In this document: piece after piece, positions 2,901-60,881 of the stretch | Position numbering within the stretch: position 1 is the first letter of the stretch | How the letters are laid out: each line of letters opens with the position of its first letter | DNA from: Chiloscyllium plagiosum | Taxonomy: Eukaryota | Assembly: GCF_004010195.1 (NCBI RefSeq) | Contig: NC_057720.1 | Span: 74,833,220 to 74,897,219 of the forward strand | DNA length: 64,000 nt | Direction: 5' to 3' | Notes under the pieces: model-generated | Database searches by the model: none | What the model was told of the DNA's origin: nothing | Seen by the model: the letters and a program-made list of their open reading frames with translations, nothing else | Position numbers and translations under genes: made by a program

Positions 2901-3635
2901 TCATTTAAAGAGCTGAGAATTTAAATAACTAACATAGTGAATGTTTTATGGGTCTTATCAGCCCTCCAAAAGCATTCCCATCTATTTCAAGAATTTGTGT
3001 ATTCCAAACTGTAGATTAAGGTCTTTGCTAAATTGGGTCTGCTTGAAGTCAGTACTGTGTTCTGACAACCCAATAACAGTCACACCCCAGAAACTTATGC
3101 AAATAAAATCACAGTTGACTCACCATTTACCACATTAGTTACCTTTCTCATCTCTTGAAGCAAAACTGAGAAATTGTATTCAGAAACGCAATTACAGAAT
3201 AGTTTCCTGGGATGCGCAGGCTGGATGAATTACCCAAGGGAGATGCCGGGTGACAGGAATATGGTGAGGGGTGGGGGCTGGGTGAGCGTGGGATACTCTG
3301 CAGAGGGAAGGTGTGGACTCAATGGACCCAATGGCCTGCTTCTACACAGTTGGGATTCTATGAACCTATAAAATGGGTCCGCATACTCACCTAAAACTGA
3401 GATGAATGTATCAAATTTCCCATTGGCATATTAACTTCAAGGCAGTGATAAATAATTCACCACTTGATTGACGTTGGCTCTGTGCCTCTGGTGCAGGATT
3501 TTTAAGTACAGAGAAAACTTTTTGAAACTTGTGAGTTGAGCTAAATGTGAAGAAGGTTCAGGAGAAATGAATGGCTGTAGTTCCAATGACAAGATGAGGC
3601 AGAAACAAGCTGGATGATTAACAGTACCGGGAGAT

Positions 3636-3763
3636 AGTGAGGACTGCAGATGTTGGCGAGTCATCGTGGATAAAGAGTGGAGCTGGAAAAAAGCACGGCA
3701 GGTCAAGCAGCATTAGAAGAGCAGGAGAGTTGACGTTTCAGGTCAGAACCTTTCATCAGGACT
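3636..3763 (-). mobile_element. Penelope-derived short element with hammerhead motif (motif 3728-3763)
   Basis: Minus strand AGTC-CTGATGA-A-AGGT-TCTG-ACCT-GAAA-C-GTC-AACT. Body homologous to 1083-1216. Confidence 0.75.
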
Positions 3764-4899
3764 TCCTACTTGAACAGTTAGGTTTACTCTTAAAGCAAAT
3801 TATGATTCAATTAAATATATTAAAAGCAGGCAGTTGTCATAATGACAACTGTTTCATCGATGCCAGCTTAAAACAAGATTTCTTTAACTCATAATTTTTA
3901 AAGTTGCAACAAGGGAACTATCATACTTAACCACAGTTCTGAAGAAACCTCCGCTAGCTGTTTTGTTTCTTGACCTCAGTCTTGAATGTCTTCTCCCCTC
4001 CCCCTTTCTCAAAATTCTGAGAACATGGTTCTGCGCAAACTTTGGAAGTCAAGGTGTCAAGGGACTCTTTCAAATACATTTATCTATAATTGTTTTTCTT
4101 TGTAAAATTATCAAGAAGTTACTACAAACGCTCGGAATATAAAATGTGGAGCAGAGGCAGAACATACCGCCCCTTGAGAAAGTAAAACACTTTAGATCCT
4201 TATCCTGAAGTTTTACTTTAATAATTACAAACTAGATTGGAGCTAGCAGATACAAAATTACTTTTTATTAATATAATTTTTCAAAGTTGTGAAAGATATT
4301 TCAAAGAGTTTAAGATGCCCTCGCAATACTATGAGATACTATGAAAATGCCGACTTGACTTGAGGTTACCAATTGACTTATTTACACTTTATGTTGTCTG
4401 GAGGTGTAGATAATGAACATAGGTGTCAGTCCATAATGGATCTGAGACTGGGGAATGGTCCAAGAAATTGATCATTTGAAACAAATTGGGTCCAGCAGTG
4501 AACAAAGCAAAGGCAGTGAAAATGGGTATTTTGGATACAGTGCAAAAATGTTGCTGCTGTTCTTAAAGCTGCATAGTCTTTTCTCCGTGGGGACATGGCT
4601 GCACACTAAAGATAGATGTGCTTAAGACAGAACACAGCAAAGATGGCTATTTTAGCTTGGGAAGATAAACATTATCTGCCTTGTGTGTTGGCATGGCAGT
4701 GAGTATTCTCACACACAGCGGTGGTTGAATGCTCTGCCTTTTTTTATCCATTTTAAAATGGATTGAATTCAATTGCAACATTTAAAACAGGTGATAAAAT
4801 ACCAACATAATTAATTATTCTGCATCAATATTGGATATGCTATTCTAAATGCCTCTATCACTTTATTCGACTCCAGTGAGGCTGTGGTGTGGAATACTG

Positions 4900-5455: not shown

Positions 5456-7060
5456 AGGATTCAAGTGTAGGAACAAAGATGTCTTGCTGCAATTATACAG
5501 GTCATTGGTCAGGCCACACCTCAAATTTTCTGATTTGGTCTCTTTATCTGAGGAAGGCTGCTATTGCTATGGAGAGAATATAGCGAAGGTTTACCAAATT
5601 GATTTCTAGGATAGTAGGATTGATGTATGAGGAGAGACTGAGTTGGTTCGGATTATATTCTGTGGGGTTTAGAAAAAGGAGGGGAAATCTCATAGAAACC
5701 TATAAAATTCTCACGGAATTAAACAGGTTAGATGTAGGAAGGGTGTTCCCAATGGTGGGGGACTCCAGAACTAGGAGTCATAGTTTAAGAATCGCCTGCA
5801 ACTGTCCATGATATAAATAAATGAGTTGGAAGAGGAGACCAAGTGTAACATATCCAAGTTTGCTGATGACACTAAATTGAGTGGAAAGGCAAACTGTGCA
5901 GAGGATGTGGAGAGTCTGCAGAGAGATTTAGGAAGATTAAGTGAGTGGACAAAGGTCTGGCAGATGGAGTACAATGTTGGCAAATGTGAGGTTATCCACT
6001 TTGGAAATAAAAATAGTAGGTTAGAGTATTATTTAAATGGTGAAATATTGCAGCATGCTGTTGTGCAGAGGGACTTAGGAATGCTCATACATGAATCGCT
6101 AAAAGTTGATTTGCAGGTTCAGCAGGTAATCAGAAAGGCAAATGGAATATTGGCTTTCATTGCTAGAGGGATTGAATTTAAGAGCAGGGAGGTTCTGCTG
6201 CAATTGTACAAGGTGTTGGTGAGACTGCACCTGGAGTATTGTATGATATTCTGGCTGACTGACTTGAGGAAGGATAGACTGGCTTTGGAGGTGGTGCAGA
6301 GGAGGTTCGCCAGGTTGATTCTGGAGACTGGGTGGGGGGGTCACCTATGAGGAGAGGTTGAGCCACAATGGACTGTACTCATTAGAATTTAGAAGAATGA
6401 GAGGAAATCTTATAGAGACATATTATGAAAAAGATCAATAAGATAGAGGCAAGTAAGTCGTTTCTGCTGGTGGGTGAGACTAGGACTAGGGGTCATGGCC
6501 TCAAGATTAGGGGGAGTAGATTGAGGACAGAAATGAGGAGGAGTTACTTTTCCCAGAAAGTAGTGAATCTATGGAATTCTGTGCCCAAGCAAGCAGTCGA
6601 TGCAGCTTCATTAAATATATTCAAGACCCAGTTGGATGGGTTTTTGCATGGTTGGGGAATTAAGAGTTATGGGGATAATGCAGGTAGGAGGAGCTGAGAC
6701 AATGGATAGATCAACCATGATCTTCATGGCGGAGCAGACTCAATGGGCCAAATGGCCTACTCCTGCTTCTGTTACTATGAAATGAAGAAGAAGGAGCGAA
6801 CCTCTTAGCACTGAGGTGTGGAGAAATATATTCACCAAGAGAGAGGTGAGCCTGTGGAATTAATTACCACAGAAAGTGGCTGAGGCTAAATCATGGTGTG
6901 TCTTCAGAAAGGAGGTAGATATATAGCTCTTGTGGCTAAAGGGATCAAGGGATATGGAGCAGGGTGGGAATAGGCCATTGAGTTGGGTGATCAGCCATGA
7001 TCGTATTGAAAAGCAGAATGGCCTACTCCTGCTACTACCTTCTACATGTTCACGTTTCTA
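5250..7060 (+). mobile_element. CR1 ORF2 C-terminus and 3'UTR (5250-5792 plus ~6790-7060), interrupted by a younger CR1
   Basis: Reads QQAVKKANYMLGFIARG..LQLYRSLVRPHL..RTRSHSLRI, and homology resumes after ~6790. Confidence 0.75.
5793..6785 (+). mobile_element. 5'-truncated, relatively young CR1 LINE (RT C-terminal half and 3'UTR)
   Basis: 174-aa ORF 5826..6350 has ISKFADDTKL (RT YADD-type motif) and WQMEYNVGKCEVIHFG. ORF 6425..6697 has RTRGHGLKI..VVNLWNS. Confidence 0.9.
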
Positions 7061-7100
7061 TGTTTGTGTTTGGAATTTATTTTCTTTGGAAAGAGGGGAA

Positions 7101-7382
7101 TGTTGTGCATGTGTTGCAGCTGATGCACTGATGATGTCATCACCGTATGATGACATGTGACCTAGTGACATGAAGCTTTCAGTCTCCACTGTAATAAGCT
7201 CTGTCCTCTTGGAGCATGACATACTGACAAAGGCATGCTGCAGTACAACTGAACTGCTTATCCTGAGCCTAGGTAGGCAAGTGGCTGTGATTGTAATGTG
7301 CATATCTAGCTCTCACAAGCTGGAATAAAAGTTTCTTGTATTCTTCAGTACTATATGGCCCACTCCCTATCCTTATGTGACA
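7101..7382 (+). mobile_element. Candidate LTR preceded by a polypurine tract
   Basis: GGAAAGAGGGGAA (7088-7100) directly before TGTTG; AATAAA at 7324; ends ..TGACA. Confidence 0.55.
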
Positions 7383-7523
7383 GGAGCTTTGTGTCTCAAT
7401 GTAATAATGAAAGATCATCAATACATCAGCTACCACATCACCTCACCTCACCATAGCATATCACATGAATACTACTGGTGTAGACCCACCCATACAGCTG
7501 TGCTAAGACATCCATGTTCCATC

Positions 7524-7887
7524 CCTAACCTGGACATCTTTGGACTGTGGCAGGAAACCGGAGCTCCTGGGAGAAACCTATGTACACACAGGGAGAAGGT
7601 GCAAATTTGGACGGTCGCCTGAGGCTGGAATCGAACCCGGGTCCCTGGCACTGTGCACGCTGTCTCATTTATTCAAAGGATTTCACATTACTGGCTGGTC
7701 CAATATTTATTTCCCATTCCTAATTGTCCAGAGGGCAATTAAGACCCAACAATATTGCATTGGTCTGGATTCACACGTAGACCAGATTAAGTCTGGATGG
7801 CAGTTTCCTTCCTTCAAGGATATTAGTGAACTATCTATTTTTTCCCCAACAGTAGGCAATGTTTTCATGGTCATCATTAGATTCTTA
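7524..7887. repeat. Left arm of near-identical inverted duplication (partner 8524-8886)
   Basis: Reverse complement of 8524-8886 with about 4 substitutions and 1 indel. ORFs 7540..7920 (+) and 8523..8957 (-) share sequence. Confidence 0.95.
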
Positions 7888-8913
7888 CAGTCAAGGCCAA
7901 TGTATCATTTGCCTCCCTAACTGCATTGGCTTGCTGAAGTTAGGAAGGAGTAGAGTGAGCGTTATACTACCATAAGAGTATAGCTCCTCTGGACTAATTT
8001 TATTAATTTGGATTTCACATGAATGTGAATTTTATTCTTTTGTTGGGAATGTTTGGTTTAGTTGGCATTGTCCCCTGACTCTGGATGGTGAGGTCCAAAG
8101 CACCCCTCTAATATGGGACCATGGACCTCATTTCGAGCAAGCCGTGAGCTGCAACAGGCAACTTGCCAGGGAAGTGAGCCTGAAGAACAGCTTACTGTGA
8201 CACCAGTAACAGACCTTGGATAAGCGGTGGAAGGGGATGAATGGAAAATGGAGAGGTTCACGATGTGGAGGCATTGAATGTGGGAGGAGGCAGCAATGGC
8301 TGAGGTGGATGGGGCGGGGAGGGACAGGTACTGGGGGCTGTGGAGTTGGTTTTTATGGGTTGCGGGTTTTAAATTCTGGTAATGTGTTTCAAAATGTATC
8401 TCAGCAAACATATCACCCAAAGAAGGGGTGTTGATTATCTGAAGACCCAGGTGGTGTTCTGGGCACCCAGGTTCAAATCCTCTCATGGTGAAATTTTAAT
8501 TTGATTAAAAATAAATTTGAAATTAAGAATCTAATGATGACCATGAAACATTGCCTACTGTTGGGGAAAAAATAGATAGTTCACTAATATCCTTGAAGGA
8601 AGGAAGCTGCCATCCAGACTTAATCTGGTCTACGTGTGAATCCAGACCAATGCAATATTGTTGGGTCTTAATTGCCCTCTGGACAATTAGGGATGGGAAA
8701 TAAATATTGGACCAGCCAGTAATGTGAAATCCTTTGAATAAATGAGACAGCGTGCACAGTGCCAGGGACCCGGGTTCGATTCCAGCCTCAGGCGACCGTC
8801 CAAATTTGCATATTCTCCCTGTGTGTACATAGGTTTCTCCCAGGAGCTCCGGTTTCCTGCCACAGTCCAAAGATGTCCAGGTTAGGTGGATTGGCCATGC
8901 TAAATTATCCGTG

Positions 8914-9195
8914 GTTGAAACTTTATTGCTGGAACAGCACAGCAGGTCAGGCAGCATCCAGGGAACAGGAGATTCGACGTTTCGGGCACAGGCCCTTCTT
9001 CAGGAATTGTAGAGAGAGGCAGAGAGCTTCTTCAAGGAAGGCATCCTTGTAAGAGGATTCGCAGTAGGTTGAAATCTTCGAGGAGAAAGTGAGGTCTGCA
9101 GATGCTGGAGATCAAAGTTGAAACTTTATTGCTGGAACAGCACAGCAGGTCAGGCAGCATCCAGGGAACAGGAGATTCGACGTTTCGGGCACAGG
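8914..9195 (-). mobile_element. Tandem Penelope-derived unit: two identical 79-bp direct repeats, 203-bp period
   Basis: 8914-8992 is identical to 9117-9195. One complete and one half hammerhead motif. Confidence 0.85.
8972..9007 (-). ncRNA. Minimal type I hammerhead ribozyme, fully paired
   Basis: Minus strand ATTC-CTGAAGA-A-GGGC-CTGT-GCCC-GAAA-C-GTC^GAAT. Stem I ATTC/GAAT, stem II GGGC/GCCC, palindromic ACGU helix III, GUC cleavage triplet. Confidence 0.85.
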
Positions 9196-9384
9196 GGAAA
9201 GAGTCTTCAGAGGGTCATATAGACCTGATGATCCGAATGGCCTCTATTTGCACTGTAGGGGTTCCACGTTTCCATGACTGTCAGGAGATGCAATTAATCA
9301 AGGTTACTTCTTGCAGAAAACAAGATGTCCAATAATTTGAATTAAGCAATCACATTGAAAAGTAAAAAGTTACAACTGAAAGGT

Positions 9385-9605
9385 AAAAATCGAAAGAAGT
9401 GCGGATGCTGGAAATCAGAAGCAAGAACAGGAATTGCTGAAAAAGCTCAGCAGGTATGTCAGCATCCGTGGAGAGAAACCAGAGTTAGCATTTTGGATCC
9501 AGTGAGATTCTGAGGAAGGGTCACCTGACCCAAAACATTAACTTTGATTTCTCTCCACAGATGCTGCCAGACCTGTTGAGCTTTTCCAGCAATTTCTATT
9601 TTTGA
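9385..9605. mobile_element. Palindromic (head-to-head) Penelope-derived element with decayed hammerhead (9508-9542, +)
   Basis: Arms aattgctgaaaaagctcagcagg..tggagagaaa and tttctctccacagatgctg..agcttttccagcaatt. Centre CTGAGGA-A-GGGTCA-CC-TGACCC-AAAAC. Confidence 0.75.
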
Positions 9606-10754
9606 CAGAAATTACTTCTTGAATGAAGAGGAATGGAATATTGACAAACCTGTAATTTCTGGTAGTTATGTTTGGGTAGCAAGGTGAGAAGTTCATAACT
9701 GAGATGTTGAATGAAGGATATCTATAGCATTCTATACATCAGGTTTTTTTTATTGTTTCAGGCACTCTAATAGTTTTCTTCGTGCTAAGTATTCACTGCT
9801 GAATCTAGCGTAACCTTTTTGCACTAATACTTTGTAAAGCTTTTAACTCATCCCTCTACTTACCGAGAGGTGGGATTAATAAATGTTGATGAATTTTTTT
9901 TTAAGGATCATGACCCATGCATGCTTTAAGAAATTGAGACCTGCCATTTCCTTTCGGCAAAGCTGTGGGAAAATAAAATTCACTTTGTATATCTGTGTAG
10001 GTTTCCTTTTACTGCATTGTTTTTCAAAAAAAGATTGGACATGGGGGTCAATCAAATGGTTCTGATTATGGTAATCTCAGAATCTTTGGTGTGGCCTATG
10101 AAGTCAAGTTGATCCCTACTGAAATAAACAGTCTTTTGTCAGGTTTAAATGCATAACAAGCATCAGTGGCATGTCATTTTGAGTCTTGCCTGTCTTTTCC
10201 AAATTAACGTTCTGAGAAGGCTTCTATTATACTTTTTGTTAGGTTACCATGGATGGAGAGGAGGCCAAACAGCTAACTGAAGAAAATGGAAACAAGAAAT
10301 CGATTTTAATTTATATAGCGTTTTTTCATAATCTCAGGATGTTCCAAAGCAATTTACAGCCAAATAAATCATTTCACTTAAATAACAGTGGTTGACTTCA
10401 TGGGAAGAACCCAAGAACGCACCAACACTTCACTGTAGCACTGAAGATGTGCTGCAGTGACAAAGGTGTCATCTTTGAAGGAAAATCTTTGAGTACAGAG
10501 TAAAGATACCTTGCTGCCATTGTATACAGAGTCTGGTTGAATCACTTACCCTGTGCATTACTCTATGGATATTAGGGGAGTCATGTAGCTCTTGACAATG
10601 CTATAGACTTTAAAAAGCTCCTGTAGGATCTTGCTGTTTAATTTGCACACTGATCACTATCAATCTGGCACAGGACACCAAACCAATTACATACTAACAC
10701 CCTGACTGGAATTGAAACCTTATAGTTATGGGTAGCAATGGTTTGTATGAACCG

Positions 10755-11700
10755 GGTGTATAAGGAACTGAGGACATTGCTGCTAAATTTATCGATGACA
10801 CAAAGATAGTTGGAGGGACAGATAGCATTGAGGAAGTGGAGAGGCTGCAGAAGGACTTGAATAGGCTTGGAAAGTGGGCAAAGAAGTGGCAGATGGACTG
10901 CTATGGGGGAACGTGTGAGGTTATGCACTTTGGTTGGAAGAATAGAGGCATAGACCATTTTCTCAATGGAGAAAGACTTCAGAAATCTGAACGACAAAGA
11001 GATTCGGGAGTCCGTATTCAGGATGCTCTTCAACTTATCATATAGGTTCAGTTGGCAGTTATAAAGACATGCAATGTGAGTATTCATTTTGGGAGGGCTA
11101 GAATACAAGAGCAGAGATGTACTGCTGAAGCTGTATATGGCCCTGGTCAGACTACACTTGGAATATTGTGAGCAGAATTGAACCCTGTATCTAAGGAAGG
11201 ATGTGCTGGAATTGGATAGGGTCCAGAGGAGGTTTACAAGAATGATCCAGCGGATGAAGGGCTTGTCATACGAGGAGTGGTTGAGGACTCTGGATCTATA
11301 CTCAATGGGGTACAGAAGGATGAGGGAGGAATCCCATTGGGCCTAACAGAATACTGAGCAGCTTGGATAGAGGGGATGTGGAGAGCATGTTTCCACCAGT
11401 CGGCGAGATTAGGATCCAATGGTATGGCCTCAGAGTAGAGGGACAGCCTTTCAGAACCGAGATGAGGAGGAACTTTTTCAGCCAGTGGATGGTCGATCTG
11501 CAGAACCCATTGGCACAGGGGGCTGCAAATGCTGAATCATTGAGCGATTTTTTGACAAAAATAGATTGGTTCTTGATTAATAGGAGGATCAAAGAATGCA
11601 GGGAGAAAGTAGGAGAATTGGGTTGAGAAATATATCAGCTGTGATCAAATGAGCTGACTGACTTGATTCTGCTCCTTTATCTCATGATCTTATGGTCATA
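10755..11700 (+). mobile_element. 5'-truncated decayed CR1 LINE
   Basis: ERLQKDLNRLGKWAKKWQM..CEVMHFG and FRTEMRRNFFSQ; frameshifted. Confidence 0.85.
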
Positions 11701-17325: not shown

Positions 17326-18257
17326 TTATTAGAGTTATCGTATGAATGCCTGGGGAGATGGACCCAAGTTTGAAGAGCCAAGTCTGGAGATTACAAAGAC
17401 CCATATGAGGCTTTCAGCAGATAAGTGAGGCAGGATGATGTTCGATGGTGCCAGATGAGAAAAAGACATTCTTGGTCCTATTCAGGGATATGGGAGAAGT
17501 GCAGGAAATTGGGATTAATTCATTTTTAGTGCTAGTTCTGTCAGTGCAGATTCGAAGGGCCAAAGGGTGATGTATAATTTCATTCCAGGGCTTTCATCGC
17601 ATGGTGAGATATAGCACAAGATTACAATCAGCTTCAGGGTCAGACAGTTGCCGTGAAGAGGAATAGAGTTGGAAGTAAGGAACAATGTTTGTTGAAAGTA
17701 CAACGGCTTTGGAGCTCCCAATAGATAGTTGGAGGAAATTTCTATTTGTTCACTAGGAGTCTGATAATTTAGTGACAGTAGAGGAGAGGTGTTAAAGGTG
17801 GATAGTGTGGACAACTAAAGAAACAAGCAGACCAAGATGGACAGCTAGGAGAGATGGTCAATGAGAAGTTTTTTACGGTATTCTTTCACAGGATATGGGT
17901 ATTGTTGGCAAGTCCAGCACTTATTGCCCATTCTGATTGTCCCTGAATTCAGGGACTTCCTGAGCTGCTTCAGAAGCCACTACTGGATATGGAGTCAAAG
18001 AACAAACACAATACAGCACAGAGCCCTTCAGCCCTCTAAGCCTGTGCCAACACATTTTACCCTTCCATACTAAACTGTCGTCACTTACAGGATCTGTATC
18101 GCTTTATTCCCATCCTATTCATGTGTTCGTCCAGGTGCTTCTTGAATGCTGCTATTGAGTCACGTGTAGGTAAGAGCTACATGTAGGCCAGAGCAGGTGA
18201 GGATGGCAGATTTCCTTTTCTAAAAGACAGATATCAACCAAATGGGTTTTTATGAAA

Positions 18258-18412
18258 CCAAAACAGAAATTGCTGGAGAAACTCTGCAGGTCTGGCATCA
18301 TCTGTGGAGAGAAAGCAGAGTCAATCTCTCGGGGTCCAATGACCAGCTGAGTTTCTCCAGCAACTTACGTTTTTAACTTCAGATTTCCGGCATCCGCAGT
18401 TCTTTGTTTTTT
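18258..18412. mobile_element. Internally deleted palindromic Penelope-derived element
   Basis: Inverted arms ttgctggagaaactc and gagtttctccagcaa; same family as 9385-9605. Confidence 0.65.
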
Positions 18413-26264: not shown

Positions 26265-26365
26265 CTGTTCTGAAGAAGGGGCATTGCCAAAATGCTAACT
26301 GCTTTCTCTCCACATATACTGCCCAGACCTGCTGAGTTTCTTCAGTAACTTCTGCTTTCGTTTCA
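26265..26365 (+). mobile_element. Decayed Penelope-derived hammerhead element inside an old SINE
   Basis: GTT-CTGAAGA-AGGGGCATTGCC-AAAAT-GCT-AAC followed by tttctctccaca..gacctgctgagtttc. Confidence 0.6.
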
Positions 26366-30500: not shown

Positions 30501-32564
30501 CTACCCACAGCAAGATCTTTTGTTGTGTATGTTTTATCAGATTCTCCTTAAATGTCAATAACACTAACTGCTGAATACAATTCCCGGAGCTAACTCAGCA
30601 CAGCACCGTTGCAATGCTCAACTGTGTTGCCTTGTAATACTGGACTAAAACAGTCTCTTTCCTGAAGTCCATTGACTGCTCATTTTTCAATCGCCCTCCA
30701 ATTTTACTCCAGTCCTTTCAGGTAAAATACCTAATTTCTATTTTTCATTAATTCATTTGATGTGGGTGTTTCTGGCTGGGTCAGTCTTTGTTGCCCTCTC
30801 TGACTGCCCAGAGGGCAGTTAAGGGTCAACCAGATTGCTGTGTGGCTGGAGTCACATGTCGGTCAGACTGAGTGAGGAGGGCAGATACCTTTCTCTTACT
30901 GACCCAGTCTAGGTTTTACAACAATCAACACTGTTTACATGGCCAGCATTAGACTGGCGTTTAATTCCAGATGTTTATTGAATTCAAATTTCACCACCTG
31001 CCATCTGCTGATCATGGACGCCTGCAGTGTCCTCAGAGACGCAAGGCAAGAGGCCATTCTTCCAAACTGAGCTAAACAATTGAATGAGAAAGATCATCAT
31101 ATCCATTTCTCCACTAGCTACATCCATTGAAAGAAAGCTGCTGCATTAATATAGCACTTATATCCCAACATCATGCCATTCCAAAAAAACTTTGCCATCA
31201 ATGAAGTAATTTTTGAAAGATAGTCACTGTTGTCAAATAATGTTTTCCAGAAATGAGTTACTGCATGGCAAGTAGAAGTGGCAACACTGTTAGATATTTA
31301 CATATCCTAACACTTGAATAATTAGGTCAATTGCTGTGCCTACTGAAGCTGACAAAACCAACACTGACCACAAATTGTTTTTTTTAAATTTTTCACTGTA
31401 AAACGCAACAGGCAATGACTTTACCAGCTAAGTCATAGGGGAAGGAAAGAAGGAAGATTTACAGTGATTGTTCTTGAATATTGTTTGTTAGACATGGTCT
31501 GTAGGCAGATATGATGTTTCGATTAATACCATGCATAGTGTCATCAGCATTCACAAAGCCACTGGAACAACGTGTCATCATGATCCATTAAAATGTCTTT
31601 GATCATGCTACTTTAAGCTATCATTTCAGTTGTGACAAAAGATGAGGCCCCAGCAAGTGTCAACATCTCTCCTTGAGTATGACTGCAGTTTTATGGAGCT
31701 ATTCACTAAGTATACTTTCCATTTAAGTGCAGAAGAGAAGAGCTGGAAAGATGCATCACCTTGACATTGGGTGAGATACAAGTGAAAGGTTCACCCATGC
31801 CCTTTGCGTGTAGGCAGTTTGATGAGACTTTTACAATTAAATTATACATTTCTAATGCAATGTGGCCAGTTAGCTCAGATGGCTAGTTTAGAATGCAGTG
31901 ATGCCAACAGCTTGAACCAGCTGTGGTTACCGCAAAAGACTCTCCTTCTCAACCCACCAGTCAAGACCCTCTGACTTAACTCGTGTGCTGCCTTGACCTG
32001 AAAGATTGAGGGAAGTGTGTCGGGAGTTGTGCTGAAATTGTTTGGGGTCACAAGTCTGTCACGGTTGAGTAGCTGGCAGTGTGAGCGAGTGGCAAGATGT
32101 GGGTATGAGGATTCAGCAGTGCCACTTGTGTGAGGGCAAGGTGAAGCATATTAAGTACTGAATTATTTATTGAGATCATTGATAGACGAGTGTTGTGGCT
32201 GAGGTCAATTGAGCAGTAGTATTTACTGACCTTGATCACTCATGTGAGGTCACTGAGCCACAACATGGCACCTAGATCCTTGCAGTTTGGACCTTAGCAT
32301 CTCTGTCACAGCCATTGGGTCCTACAACCAGACCCCAGTTCCCTAAGTTATTACAGTAACAGAGAGGATACCCAAATTTGTTCAGCTACCAGTTGAGGAA
32401 GAGGGATGAATTTGCTCCCCTTCTTTATTCACCCACCCCTTCAGGCGGTTACAATAAAGTTAAGTTACCAAGGAATTTCTCCCTGTTGATGCCTTTCTCC
32501 CTACCCGACTAACTTCTGTTTTAAAAGTAGCCAATTTCAACTTGGCTTTCTCAGGTTATAAAGT

Positions 32565-43171: not shown

Positions 43172-43502
43172 GGACGGTGCGATGGTTCAGTAGTTAGCAC
43201 CGCTGCCTCACAGTGCCAGAGATCCGGGTTTGATTCCAGCCTCGGATGACTGTCTATGTGGAGTTTGCACATTCTCCCTGTGTCTGCGTGGGTTTCCTCT
43301 GGATGCTCCGGTTTCCTCCCGCAATCCAAAGATATGCAGATCAGGTAAATTGGCCGTGCTAAATTGCCCATAGTGTTAGGTACATTAGTCAGGAGTAAAT
43401 GTAGGGGAATGGGTCTGGGTGGGTTACTCTTCAGAGGGTCGGTGTGGACTTGTTGTGCCGAAAGGCCTGTTTCCACACTGTAGGGAAGCTAATCTAATCT
43501 AA
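43172..43502 (+). mobile_element. Full-length HE1-type (V-SINE) tRNA-derived SINE
   Basis: A-box tggttcagtagttagc, B-box ggtttgattcc, V-domain tgtggagtttgcacattctccc..ggtttcctcc, (ctaat)n tail. Confidence 0.9.
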
Positions 43503-46234: not shown

Positions 46235-47015
46235 CTATTCATTCTGAGAATGTGGGCTTCGCTGGTTTGGCCAGCATTTATTGCCTAGCCCCAGTTGCCT
46301 TTCAGAATGTGGTGGTGAGCTGCAGTCCATTTGGTGTAGGGAGATCTACAATGCTGTTAGGGAGGGAGCTCCAGGATTTTAACTCCGTAGCATTGAAGAA
46401 ACAGCAATATATTTCCCCATTAGACTGTAAATGTCTTGAAGAGGAACTTTCACATGGTAGTATTCCCATGTATTTCCTGCCCTTGTCCTTCTCAGTGGTA
46501 GCGTTTGTGGTTTGGCAGGTGCTGTCTAAATAGGCTTGGTGAATTTTTGCAGATAATAGATAGTATACACTGCTGCTACTGATCATCTGTCGTGGAGGGA
46601 GTGGATATTTGGGGATGACACGCCAGTTGAATGAATTGCTTTGTCCTGTTTGGTGTCAAGCTTCTGAATGTTGGAGCTACACCCATTCAGGCAAGTGGGG
46701 AGCATTCTACCACACTCCTGACTCATGCCTTGTCGATAGTTGATAGGCTTTGGAGAGTCAGAAGGTGAGTTATTTGCTGCAGTATTCCTAGCCTCTGACC
46801 TGCTCTTGCAGCAACAGTATTCATACAGCTAACCCAGTTGAATTTCTGCTCAATGGTAGCCGCCATGATGTTGATTATGTGGTTCAGTGATGAAAATGCC
46901 TAATTGAATGTCCAAGGATCATAGTTAGATTCTCTCTTGTTGGAGATGGTCATTGCCTTGCACCTGTGTGGCACAAATGTTACTTGTCACATGTTAGCCA
47001 AAGCTTGGATGTTGC
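46235..47015 (-). mobile_element. Second-family CR1-like LINE 3' fragment
   Basis: Reverse complement of the 57380-58170 region (KSWSSLPNSIVDLPTPNGLQ). Confidence 0.75.
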
Positions 47016-47342
47016 CCAGTCTCCCCAATGTAGAGGATACCGCATCGGAAGCAACGTACACAATAAATTATATGAGTGGATGTGCAAGTAAAACTTTGAT
47101 GGATGTGGAAGGCTCCTTTAGGGCCTTGGATGGAGGTGAGGGAGGAGGTGTGGGCACAGGTTTTACAGTTCCTGCGATGGCAGGGGAAAGTGCCAGGATC
47201 CAGGGGCGTTCTGTCCTTGTTATGGTTGGAGGGGTGGGGTCTGAGGGCGGAGGTGCGGGATATAGACGAGATGCGTTGGAGGGCATCTTTAACCACGTGG
47301 GAAGGGAAATTATGGTCTCTAAAGAAGGAGGCCATCTGGTGT
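47016..47342 (-). mobile_element. Penelope-like element fragment: RT thumb end, Cys-rich linker, start of GIY-YIG endonuclease
   Basis: ORF 46994..47383: MASFFRDHNFPSHVV..PGTFPCHRRNCKTCAH..FTCTSTHIIYCVRCFRCGILYIGETG (xIY..YIG motif). Confidence 0.9.
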
Positions 47343-48563
47343 GATATTTTTCTATGTATATCACCGGCCATGTAATCCTTCATGGTGAATAAGTTCTCAT
47401 ATATCTCTCCAGTATGTGTATGTTTTTAAATTTAAATTAAACTTACTTATATTCAGCCCTCAAAGGCTAACTGCTGAAACAGATGCTGTCAAAAATTACC
47501 TGGCATCTTGTTAATTCCCCAAAACAATTTTAACAGAGGTTGTTTCTGCGATACTCACAAAAGTCAGGTACCCTACTGTGTTGAAATGAGCTGATGCATA
47601 TTTATCACTCAGTTAAGTGATGTGGAGCATGAGACAAAATGAGCAAATTCAGTACAAAGCACTTTAGAGGTGGTTTCACGTACTGCACAACCCAATGGAC
47701 ACAGATCATGCTATAGAACAATGATATTCAGACCTTCAACAAAGGAATTTCACTAAGAAAGGCCATGGTGAAGGGCATTATGTGCCACGGGGCTGCTAAC
47801 TGATATAACTCATGGTAGCTTATATTAGAATGTAAATAGTTTTTTAATAGTGTTCCCATTTTTGCATTTCGGTGGAGGTACTTAAGAGTACAACGCTGAA
47901 ATGAGAAATTTGATACTGTTATTGTTTTTGCTGTAATGTCCAACTTGAACTGTTTTGCCAGGTACTTTATAGATAATTTCTGTATATCTTGAAAATAAGG
48001 GACAGAAAATCTTTTTGTAAGTATTGTATTGATTTGATTTATAAATCTGTTTGGCTTGTCTACTGCCTACTGTGCAGTAATAATCTAAAAGGTCTATACT
48101 TATCTCTCTTGTGATAGTACCACAGATTTAACCATGCCTTTTATCTTTGCATTCAAACCATGTTTACGAACGTTGTTACAAACAGCAATAGATTTTAGAT
48201 AATGGTTCTTCTGTACATATTGTATCTAGTTATTCCTTTGCTGATTTGAATGCTATTTCTGGCTAATTTGAGCAGGCATAGAGGGTGACTTCGCAGATTA
48301 ACATATAAAAACCCAGCCTGTTTAACATCTCTTCTTGTATTGCTACTGAAGTACAAAAATATAGAATAAGCTGCCGTCTGGTCCTCTCCCTCATTTATAC
48401 AATGGGACAAAATCAAAATTTACCCCAGGCGCATTCATGACTTCATAATATTTCAGGAGCTTTGAAGCAAACCTTATGAATCTTATTTGCTCGTGAAAGA
48501 TATCATGTTGCAACTCATTGGCAATGCCTTTCAAAGGTGGATTGTTGCTGTGTCTTTCCACAG

Positions 48564-60200: not shown

Positions 60201-60782
60201 TTAAAATCCCAGAAAACAGGTGAAACGGTGCAGAAATGTAGCATCCTGAGGTAGTTGTGTTGTAGCCATGTGCTCATTGCCTGGAATGAGATTAAAGCTG
60301 TGACTGCTTGCATACTAAAGTGGCTCAAAACAAAAATGAAAGCTCATTTCTACTTTACTCTGAATTTCATGATAATGCATCATTATATTACAGACTGCGG
60401 TCGAGATCATTTGGCCCATCCTATCAATGCAAGCTGACAAGTAGCCATCCTGCCTAATCCAAATTCCCAGCTCTTGGTGTGCAATCTACCTAGGCTATGG
60501 CACTTCAATGGCAGATCCAGAAACCTCAAATCAAAAAATCAAATGCAATTTTCTGCCATTCCCAAGCTTTGAGACAGTGAGTTCCATATGACCGAATCCA
60601 TGCTACCCTCTGGGTGATTGCATTTCCATCCTCAGTTCCAAAGAAAACAATTCTAGTGTATCCAAAAATAAAATTCTTCAATCCAGGCAGTATTCCTACC
60701 AGCTTCTATCTCATACGATACATCCTTCCAATAATGAGATGACCAGAGCTGAATACCGTTGACCAACTTGAGGCAATCTCAA

Positions 60783-60881
60783 ACAACAACAGAAATTGCT
60801 GGAAAAGCTCAGCAAGTCTGGCAGTATCTGTGGAGAGAAATCAAAGTTAACATTTCAGATTGAGTGACCCTTCCTCAGAAC
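60783..60881 (-). mobile_element. Penelope-derived short element with decayed hammerhead (60846-60881)
   Basis: Minus strand GTT-CTGAGGA-A-GGGT-CACTCA-ATCT-GAAA-T-GTT-AAC; same family as 9385-9605. Confidence 0.7.

Follow-up and report, generated by a model that had tools for sequence, protein, structure and literature searches.

The stretch of DNA analysed here (the window; 64,000 nt of contig NC_057720.1 of Chiloscyllium plagiosum) has a GC content of about 42% and contains many copies of a tRNA-like SINE together with LINE fragments. An insert at positions 8914–9195, described below on the minus strand, interrupts a SINE (Table 1). Its two 79-bp blocks, 8914–8992 and 9117–9195, are identical at 79 of 79 positions with a start-to-start spacing of 203 bp, and the identity ends exactly at those limits, which confirms the identical repeats and the 203-nt period reported in an earlier note on this DNA. 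The insert amounts to 1.39 units of 203 nt, in line with that note's proposal of a retroelement origin and of a permuted layout longer than one unit; Tandem Repeats Finder called no array in 8500–9700. As a match, the 79-bp repeat is far beyond chance, yet both copies come from a very abundant family. The insert starts at 9195, the last base of the 5' arm of stem II and effectively the stem II loop, and its upstream copy retains GAAACGUC at 9186, both as had been described before. Neither end of the insert coincides with a ribozyme cut site, and both outer ends depart from the main 3' end and the front edge of the Penelope family described below.

The host SINE continues on either side of the insert in the same orientation. 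Its 5' part is 75–79% identical to window paralogs at 43209, 56397, and 62056, and alignment against five of five window paralogs placed a gap of 33–59 bp at the insert (47, 33, 47, 59, and 51 bp). The earlier note had the insert inside an HE1 SINE that had lost its middle: SINE sequence does occur on both sides, but the loss is limited to these 33–59 bp. The name HE1, used in that note, is a presumed one, the comparison made here being with window paralogs only. HE1 is described as a tRNA-derived SINE whose hosts include elasmobranchs (PMC2911107). No target-site duplication (TSD) was found at the insert, the best match being 2 nt.

A 364-bp inverted duplication (7524–7887 and 8524–8886), whose copies differ at five places, lies close to the insert. 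The right copy is the donor, because it joins the SINE on its right and, on its left, a repeat also present at 30769–30996. At the divergence of this inverted duplication, the probability of finding no difference in 79 bp is P = 0.34, so that the inverted duplication and the tandem repeat can be of the same age. Palindromic pairs of a related pLTR-like family also occur in the window, at 9400–9604, 18254–18333, 26268–26354, and 60772–60880. A match to mir-577 at 9467–9560, below the gathering score, was rejected as merely an inverted pLTR pair.

Table 1. Features of the insert and its surroundings, in window coordinates
Feature	Position	Strand	Evidence or remark
Upstream pLTR piece, 5'-truncated, from the stem II loop, with GAAACGUC and the cut-site equivalent 9179^9178	9117..9195	-	Lacks core box, helix I, and helix II
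Remaining pLTR up to the family main 3' end (9081/9080)	9081..9116	-	Solo copies 1080–1116 and 3630–3659; loose ends
Leader (5' UTR), pLTR end to predicted ORF start	9045..9080	-	High-copy in contig depth
Predicted first 12 codons of a Penelope-like RT/GIY-YIG ORF (MPSLKKLSASLY)	9009..9044	-	N-terminus comparison
Sole non-family junction, ORF codon 13 to hammerhead front edge	9007..9008	-	Loose ends
Complete minimal type I hammerhead (predicted), cut 8976^8975	8972..9007	-	Explicit pairing
Second 79-bp copy, ending 36 nt short of the family main 3' end	8914..8992	-	Repeat; loose ends
Host SINE, 5' part, HE1-like	8755..8913	+	Paralogs at 43209, 56397, 62056
Host SINE, 3' part	9196..9260	+	Alignment; no TSD
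Donor of the 364-bp inverted duplication	8524..8886	+	Ends 27 nt from the insert's 3' end
Inverted copy of 8524–8886	7524..7887	-	4 substitutions, 1 indel; no TSD

Composition of the 203-nt unit

Two relatives of the insert were found in the window, at 1080–1213 (87%) and 3630–3764 (73–75%). Each of these solo copies matches both 8914–9007 and 9078–9195, so the terminal repeat (pLTR) of the family spans from the hammerhead to about 9081. The hammerhead motif is also present in both solo copies, at 1209 and 3759. The solo pLTR stub at 1083–1216 (87%) has an intact minimal hammerhead, is flanked by a 15-bp TSD, and starts 7 nt before the core box. The other stub (3630–3764) is older; its core reads CUGAUGA, and its helix II is a different one that pairs in full.

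Data on the family came from four public runs compared with 8960–9400 at 88% likeness, a range that runs from inside the insert to the flank on its right. X1 and X5 are DNA contigs, X16 consists of contigs that we guessed to be RNA, and X21 is about 2% of a raw polyA single-cell run; the individual records, joints, and loose ends cited below are among the best 24 of 67,632 matching pieces, the best 15 of 84 joints, and the best 24 of 691 loose ends. Among the loose ends listed, the main 3' end of the family fell at 9081/9080 (589 + 202 contigs in X1 and 298 + 118 in X5), with 318 reads at 9081 in X21. Summed contig depth in X1, which is not a copy number, reached 323,000–388,000 in the bins of 9035–9079 and 225,000–388,000 in those of 9020–9079, against 5–15 on the unique flank. 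In the two DNA runs, the depth of every bin of the unit exceeded that of the unique flank by four to six orders of magnitude, so the spacer between the 79-bp repeats is family sequence, not unique DNA. The 73-nt segment 9008–9080 had 0.4–4% of the depth of the pLTR body across the four runs. Family motifs gave no matches in metagenome and viral contig collections, and nine genome-contig matches were treated as chance, all being bacterial and only 20–27 nt long.

Within the spacer, an ATG at 9044 opens MPSLKKLSASLY, and the frame stops two codons past the junction, after 14 codons. That MPSLKKLSASLY might be the start of a Penelope ORF was tested by comparing N-termini. Homologs were retrieved through the RT region of a Penelope fragment in the window (46997–47425) and their N-termini were then aligned; among 75 proteins of at least 780 aa, 44 were used, 23 being dropped because they lacked the anchor motif and 8 because they had no Met 34–41 aa before the anchor. 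The 12-codon peptide shares 6 of 12 residues with the N-terminus of P0033, in which RVT_1 and GIY-YIG are both above the cut-off, and with that of P0014, and it outranked all 1,496 of the 1,496 other Met-started 12-mers of the window (six frames) in both best match and top-five mean. A search for a shark protein continuing the 12 codons (query P0124, four candidates) gave none at E ≤ 10; the shark matches (e.g., P0002, P0003, P0006, and P0007) lack the N-terminus, and the ORF assignment rests on non-shark homologs. The comparison makes a strong, if indirect, case for reading 9009–9044 as the start of a Penelope-like RT/GIY-YIG ORF. The 203-nt unit is then a pLTR with its predicted leader and 12 predicted codons, and the only new sequence in it is the 9008/9007 junction. 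There is no intact RT-GIY-YIG ORF at the locus, which is a dead stub encoding no protein.

The Penelope fragment itself (46994–47425, minus strand) comprises an internally deleted RT C-terminus, a Cys linker, and the start of GIY-YIG. It has protein matches in Chiloscyllium punctatum, two of them at 85–88% identity over 34% of the query. A CX2-5CxxC linker motif was found in the fragment (46997–47425) and in P0033, and the tie of either to the pLTR of the insert is the 12-codon match only. Such a linker before GIY-YIG is given as a Neptune/Nematis feature in the account of Craig et al. (PMC8557442), and the parent element is putatively an EN+ Penelope-like element of the Neptune/Nematis type. 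The insert has what is expected of a Penelope-derived insertion, namely a pLTR with a minimal hammerhead, a leader followed by the predicted RT/GIY-YIG ORF start, and a 5'-truncated partial tandem. A TSD, which is optional for the EN+ Penelope-like class, is absent from the insert and measures 15 nt at the solo stub 1083–1216.

The 9008/9007 junction across the family

The junction sits 4 nt upstream of the core box, with an ambiguity of about 1 nt. Loose ends behind 9007 were frequent among those listed (94 contigs in X1, 79 in X5, 27 in X16, and 142 reads in X21), and past 9007 the first eight letters of their consensus were the same in all four runs and unlike the window, with an agreement of 0.38–0.53 over 30 letters. 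Read cover in X21 was 231 at 8999, 8 at 9015, and 9 at 9020, and the family letter, not that of the window, was carried by six of the eight reads at 9015 and seven of the nine at 9020. In X16, the window letter at 9020 accounted for 0 of 209.1 contig depth. In two ORF-start records of X16, the match to the window ends at 9008 and 9011 and is followed by other sequence, and the ORF-start records among the pieces listed end at 9007–9011. In these reads and contigs, most family copies do not have the 9008/9007 junction.

A few records come nearer to it. Record 17 of X5 covers 8993–9066 at a depth of 26.2, with 8 differences in 74 nt, and extends 15 nt past the junction; record 18 (9001–9077) extends 7 nt past it, both overhangs being below the 31 nt taken as the rule for bridging. 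A similar junction may therefore be present at another, diverged locus. A joint from 9066 to 9009 occurred in one contig each of X1 and X5 among the joints listed. At 9015/9020, 5.6–17.5% of the depth in the DNA contigs is without the majority letter, a share within which a subfamily resembling the copy in the window could fall.

Other joints of the family run head-to-tail from 9005–9007 to 9075–9082 (27 contigs in X1, 4 in X5, and 1 in X16, among the best 15 of 84 joints), with sides of 24–33 nt and, in several, unknown letters between them, and such short sides call for caution. On this evidence, a range of 3' points seems to have been linked repeatedly to the hammerhead front edge in the family. 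The same joints point to pLTR dimers of roughly 130 nt at other loci, which would be better retrozyme candidates than the insert locus if both of their hammerheads are complete. Separately, record 23 of X5 matches 9117–9193 with 4 differences in 77 nt; its match ends at 9117, the point equivalent to the 3' end of the insert, and 376 further letters follow. It may be another copy that shares this short end.

Hammerhead motifs of the insert

By explicit pairing, the downstream hammerhead has its CUGAAGA core box at 9003, an additional A ahead of helix II, and GAAAC, and its cut would fall after 8976 (8976^8975). Helix I has four consecutive pairs and helix II has 4 of 4 (GGGC/GCCC); the description "fully paired" in the earlier note goes too far, because helix III is no more than the loopless palindrome ACGU. 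On its sequence, this is a predicted minimal, dimer-dependent hammerhead of the Penelope type. The minimum free energy (MFE) fold of 8960–9015 has −7.8 kcal/mol (z = +0.16) and forms helices I and II. Rfam gave no match at the gathering score in the whole window, and its eight matches at E ≤ 10 in 7000–11000 include no hammerhead.

The upstream motif has 1 of 5 pairs in helix I and 1 of 4 in helix II, i.e., both helices are absent. A minimal hammerhead requires a partner for helix III, and the two ACGU words of the locus can pair at 4 of 4 positions. In a modelled cis-dimer, the downstream 5' half could at most cut the upstream copy at 9179^9178, the single site able to form; because the upstream 5' half is absent, the cut at 8976^8975 cannot form there. 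With one complete ribozyme only, no 203-nt monomer can be released from the locus in cis. The proposal made before of an RNA bounded by two cleavage sites thus finds no support at this locus, and the site that the model would allow is 9179^9178, not the 8976^8975 put forward in the earlier note for a cleavage assay. An antisense CUGAAGA in the host SINE (9204–9210, minus strand), just outside the insert, was considered as a restored ribozyme and rejected, since it gives 1 of 5 pairs in helix I and 1 of 4 in helix II; its occurrence at 9210, near the expected place of the lost core box, is probably due to chance. For Penelope minimal hammerheads in vitro, inactive monomers and dimers of low activity are reported in PMC4209133.

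Origin of the insert

The insert joins a 5'-truncated pLTR, leader, and predicted 12 codons head-to-tail with a hammerhead front edge and partial pLTR. We think that it is probably a trimmed Penelope partial-tandem insertion made by way of a template jump, and that it is single, young, and dead. The earlier note had mentioned a Penelope partial tandem as its alternative, and the high-copy spacer, the ORF-start peptide, and the head-to-tail layout make this the better-supported reading. The Penelope RT, primed at a nick in the SINE, would have copied the pLTR toward the 5' end of its RNA and run out of template 4 nt before the hammerhead core. By a jump or by re-priming, it would then have moved to codon 13, either on that RNA or on a sister molecule, recopied the leader and pLTR, and halted in stem II. 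One template copied about 1.4 times could in this way leave permuted identical repeats with neither ribozyme cleavage nor ligation. The absence of the last 36 nt of the pLTR, the absence of a TSD, and the 33–59 bp SINE gap would be accounted for by one deletion during or after integration, possibly the repair event that also lies behind the nearby inverted duplication. The inner junction is at the hammerhead front edge and codon 13, not at the cut site, which fits the copying of uncut RNA with a template jump.

Several of these elements have been described for Penelope. A pLTR that includes the first 12 codons and an optional tail, as well as partial tandems, are described by Arkhipova et al. 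(2013, PMC3846280), and truncated partial tandems are presented as typical of the Penelope-like class by Craig et al. (2021, PMC8557442). The same two accounts mention junctions with microhomology and no TSD, and microhomology deletions. Reverse transcription that initiates inside the RNA, within the ORF start, and insertion in vitro that does not need hammerhead cleavage are reported in PMC11167929. Template jumping by the Penelope RT is what we infer here. Several observations count against the partial-tandem reading: X5 records 17 and 18 may represent a similar junction at another, diverged locus, the DNA-contig depth without the majority letter could belong to a subfamily, the unit extends 73 nt past the family main 3' end, whereas the tail described for the Penelope pLTR in PMC8557442 is 30–40 nt, and the 3' end of the insert is off that main 3' end, so that an extra deletion is required.

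The absence of a TSD, in contrast to the 15-bp TSD of the solo stub, the two outer ends away from the usual ends of the family, and the inverted duplication with five differences only 27 nt away and possibly of the same age (P = 0.34) would also suit a rearrangement at the DNA level, in which an ordinary Penelope stub, or two young stubs side by side, was duplicated or pasted at a break, through slippage during replication or through template switching mediated by microhomology, and the same complex repair event deleted the SINE middle and made the inverted duplication, with no second reverse transcription. This is a genuine competitor, but we regard it as unlikely, because the inner junction coincides with the hammerhead front edge, an RNA-defined point at which the solo copy also begins (7 nt before the core) and other head-to-tail joints of the family land. 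A plain tandem duplication would moreover need later trimming of both ends, and the inverted copy lies 1 kb off and contains no Penelope sequence.

The permuted layout of 1.39 units, the 79/79 identity, and ends that fall at neither the main 3' end nor the front edge are also what a small non-autonomous retrozyme-like family would leave, if a master locus with at least two complete 203-nt units gave a transcript that was cut at each hammerhead, ligated into a circle or retained as a multimer, and then reverse-transcribed in trans by the Penelope RT. A length of 203 nt falls in the 170–400 nt range given for animal retrozyme circles (PMC7229834), retrozymes are described as pLTR-derived and as found in the one chondrichthyan sampled (10.64898/2026.07.22.740005), and the unit retains the ORF start that reverse transcription needs in the account of the Anolis element (PMC11167929). 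X5 records 17 and 18, which overlap the junction by 15 and 7 nt, and the 9066-to-9009 joint in one contig each of X1 and X5, among the matches listed, point the same way. However, the single complete ribozyme of the locus leaves the 8976^8975 cut unformable in a cis-dimer, it is minimal where the characterized retrozymes have canonical type I ribozymes (PMC7229834), and the minimal type is reported to be inactive as a monomer and only weakly active as a dimer in vitro (PMC4209133). Window letters occurred in at most two of the eight or nine X21 reads at 9015/9020 and in none of the 209.1 depth at 9020 in X16. X21 also showed no pile-up of molecule ends, a weak point because polyA libraries lose molecule ends and miss circles, and, in the 2% of that library read, no reads on the unique flank.

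Animal retrozyme circles are described as highly self-paired (PMC7229834). The modelled circle (9178–8976) had an MFE of −38.2 kcal/mol against −35.8 ± 3.8 kcal/mol for 200 shuffles, 45 of which were as good (z = −0.62), and 59% of it was paired, against 52% in shuffles. Judged against shuffles, the predicted fold is thus not that of a highly self-paired circular monomer. The unit itself is in the size and composition range of retrozymes (150–450 nt, non-coding, and GC below 50%), with 203 nt and 49% GC, but the locus lacks the run of two or more units in succession, all with complete type I hammerheads, by which retrozymes are recognized in 10.64898/2026.07.22.740005. The insert locus itself is not a non-LTR retrozyme. 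For a ribozyme to make the circle, a master locus already carrying the 9008/9007 junction would be required, so the circle model survives only with such a master locus elsewhere, and we rate it as rather improbable. In its most specific form, the locus would be a permuted copy of a low-copy 203-nt shark element, in which pLTR, leader, and 12 codons are closed on the hammerhead front edge, and which is cut into a circle by its ribozyme and mobilized by the parental RT, i.e., a retrozyme at birth that keeps its parent's RT-loading region and minimal ribozyme; this we consider doubtful. If a circular-RNA family that shares the junction does exist, it would tie Penelope terminal repeats directly, by structure, to animal retrozymes, a connection for which the arguments have until now been co-occurrence and trees, and it would offer a compact substrate with which to test cutting by minimal hammerheads in vivo.

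Finally, an assembly artefact, in which a high-copy repeat led to the wrong joining of reads that belong to separate copies, is very improbable even though perfect repeats of a very high-copy family lie beside a near-perfect inverted duplication, none of the pieces listed covers the region from end to end, and in X5 the flank contig begins at 9205, short of the outer junction, because record 8 of X1 (9167–9398) runs from the unique flank to 29 nt inside the element with 1 difference and a flank-like depth of 7.68 (29 nt being below the 31-nt bridging rule and X1 possibly being the source sample), X1 and X2 contain 0.80 and 0.76 of 66 sampled words of 8700–9400, and the inverted copies differ at five places.

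The insert adds another truncated Penelope copy to a genome that has them in abundance, and it works like the Penelope insertion types already described. No literature on this shark family or on this junction was found in a search that had subscription papers and Repbase outside its scope. As far as EN+ Penelope partial tandems are described in PMC3846280 and PMC8557442, the insert resembles them in its 5'-truncated unit lying head-to-tail with a second unit, its strong truncation, its terminal repeat that reaches the predicted first 12 codons, and its TSD-less junctions. It differs in that both units are stubs with no ORF body, the extension is 73 nt rather than 30–40 nt, the downstream unit lacks the last 36 nt, and the target has a deletion. 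In Poseidon of Anolis (PAc; Frangieh et al. 2024, PMC11167929), the ends are likewise set by internal RT starts near the ORF start and a hammerhead is located in the pLTR; PAc belongs to a different clade, however, and has its ATG inside the hammerhead, whereas the ATG of the insert, at 9044, comes 134 nt after the cut-site equivalent at 9178.

The predicted hammerhead shares with the minimal hammerheads of metazoan Penelope-like elements, as presented by Cervera and de la Pena (2014, PMC4209133), a 4-bp helix I, an extra unpaired base before G10.1, the G10.1–C11.1 pair, a palindromic loopless helix III, and the location in the pLTR, whereas helix II of the Schistosoma ribozymes is 7–8 bp in that source and 4 bp in the motif predicted here. 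In the descriptions of non-LTR retrozymes (Cervera and de la Pena 2020, PMC7229834; Li, Clavereau and Pollet 2026, 10.64898/2026.07.22.740005), a direct-repeat unit about 200 nt long that bears a type I hammerhead, derivation from a pLTR, the lack of coding capacity, and a GC content below 50% (49% here) are points of likeness. Those retrozymes have at least two complete units and a canonical ribozyme; the shark insert has 1.39 units with one complete ribozyme of the minimal type, no TSD, and no unusual self-pairing.
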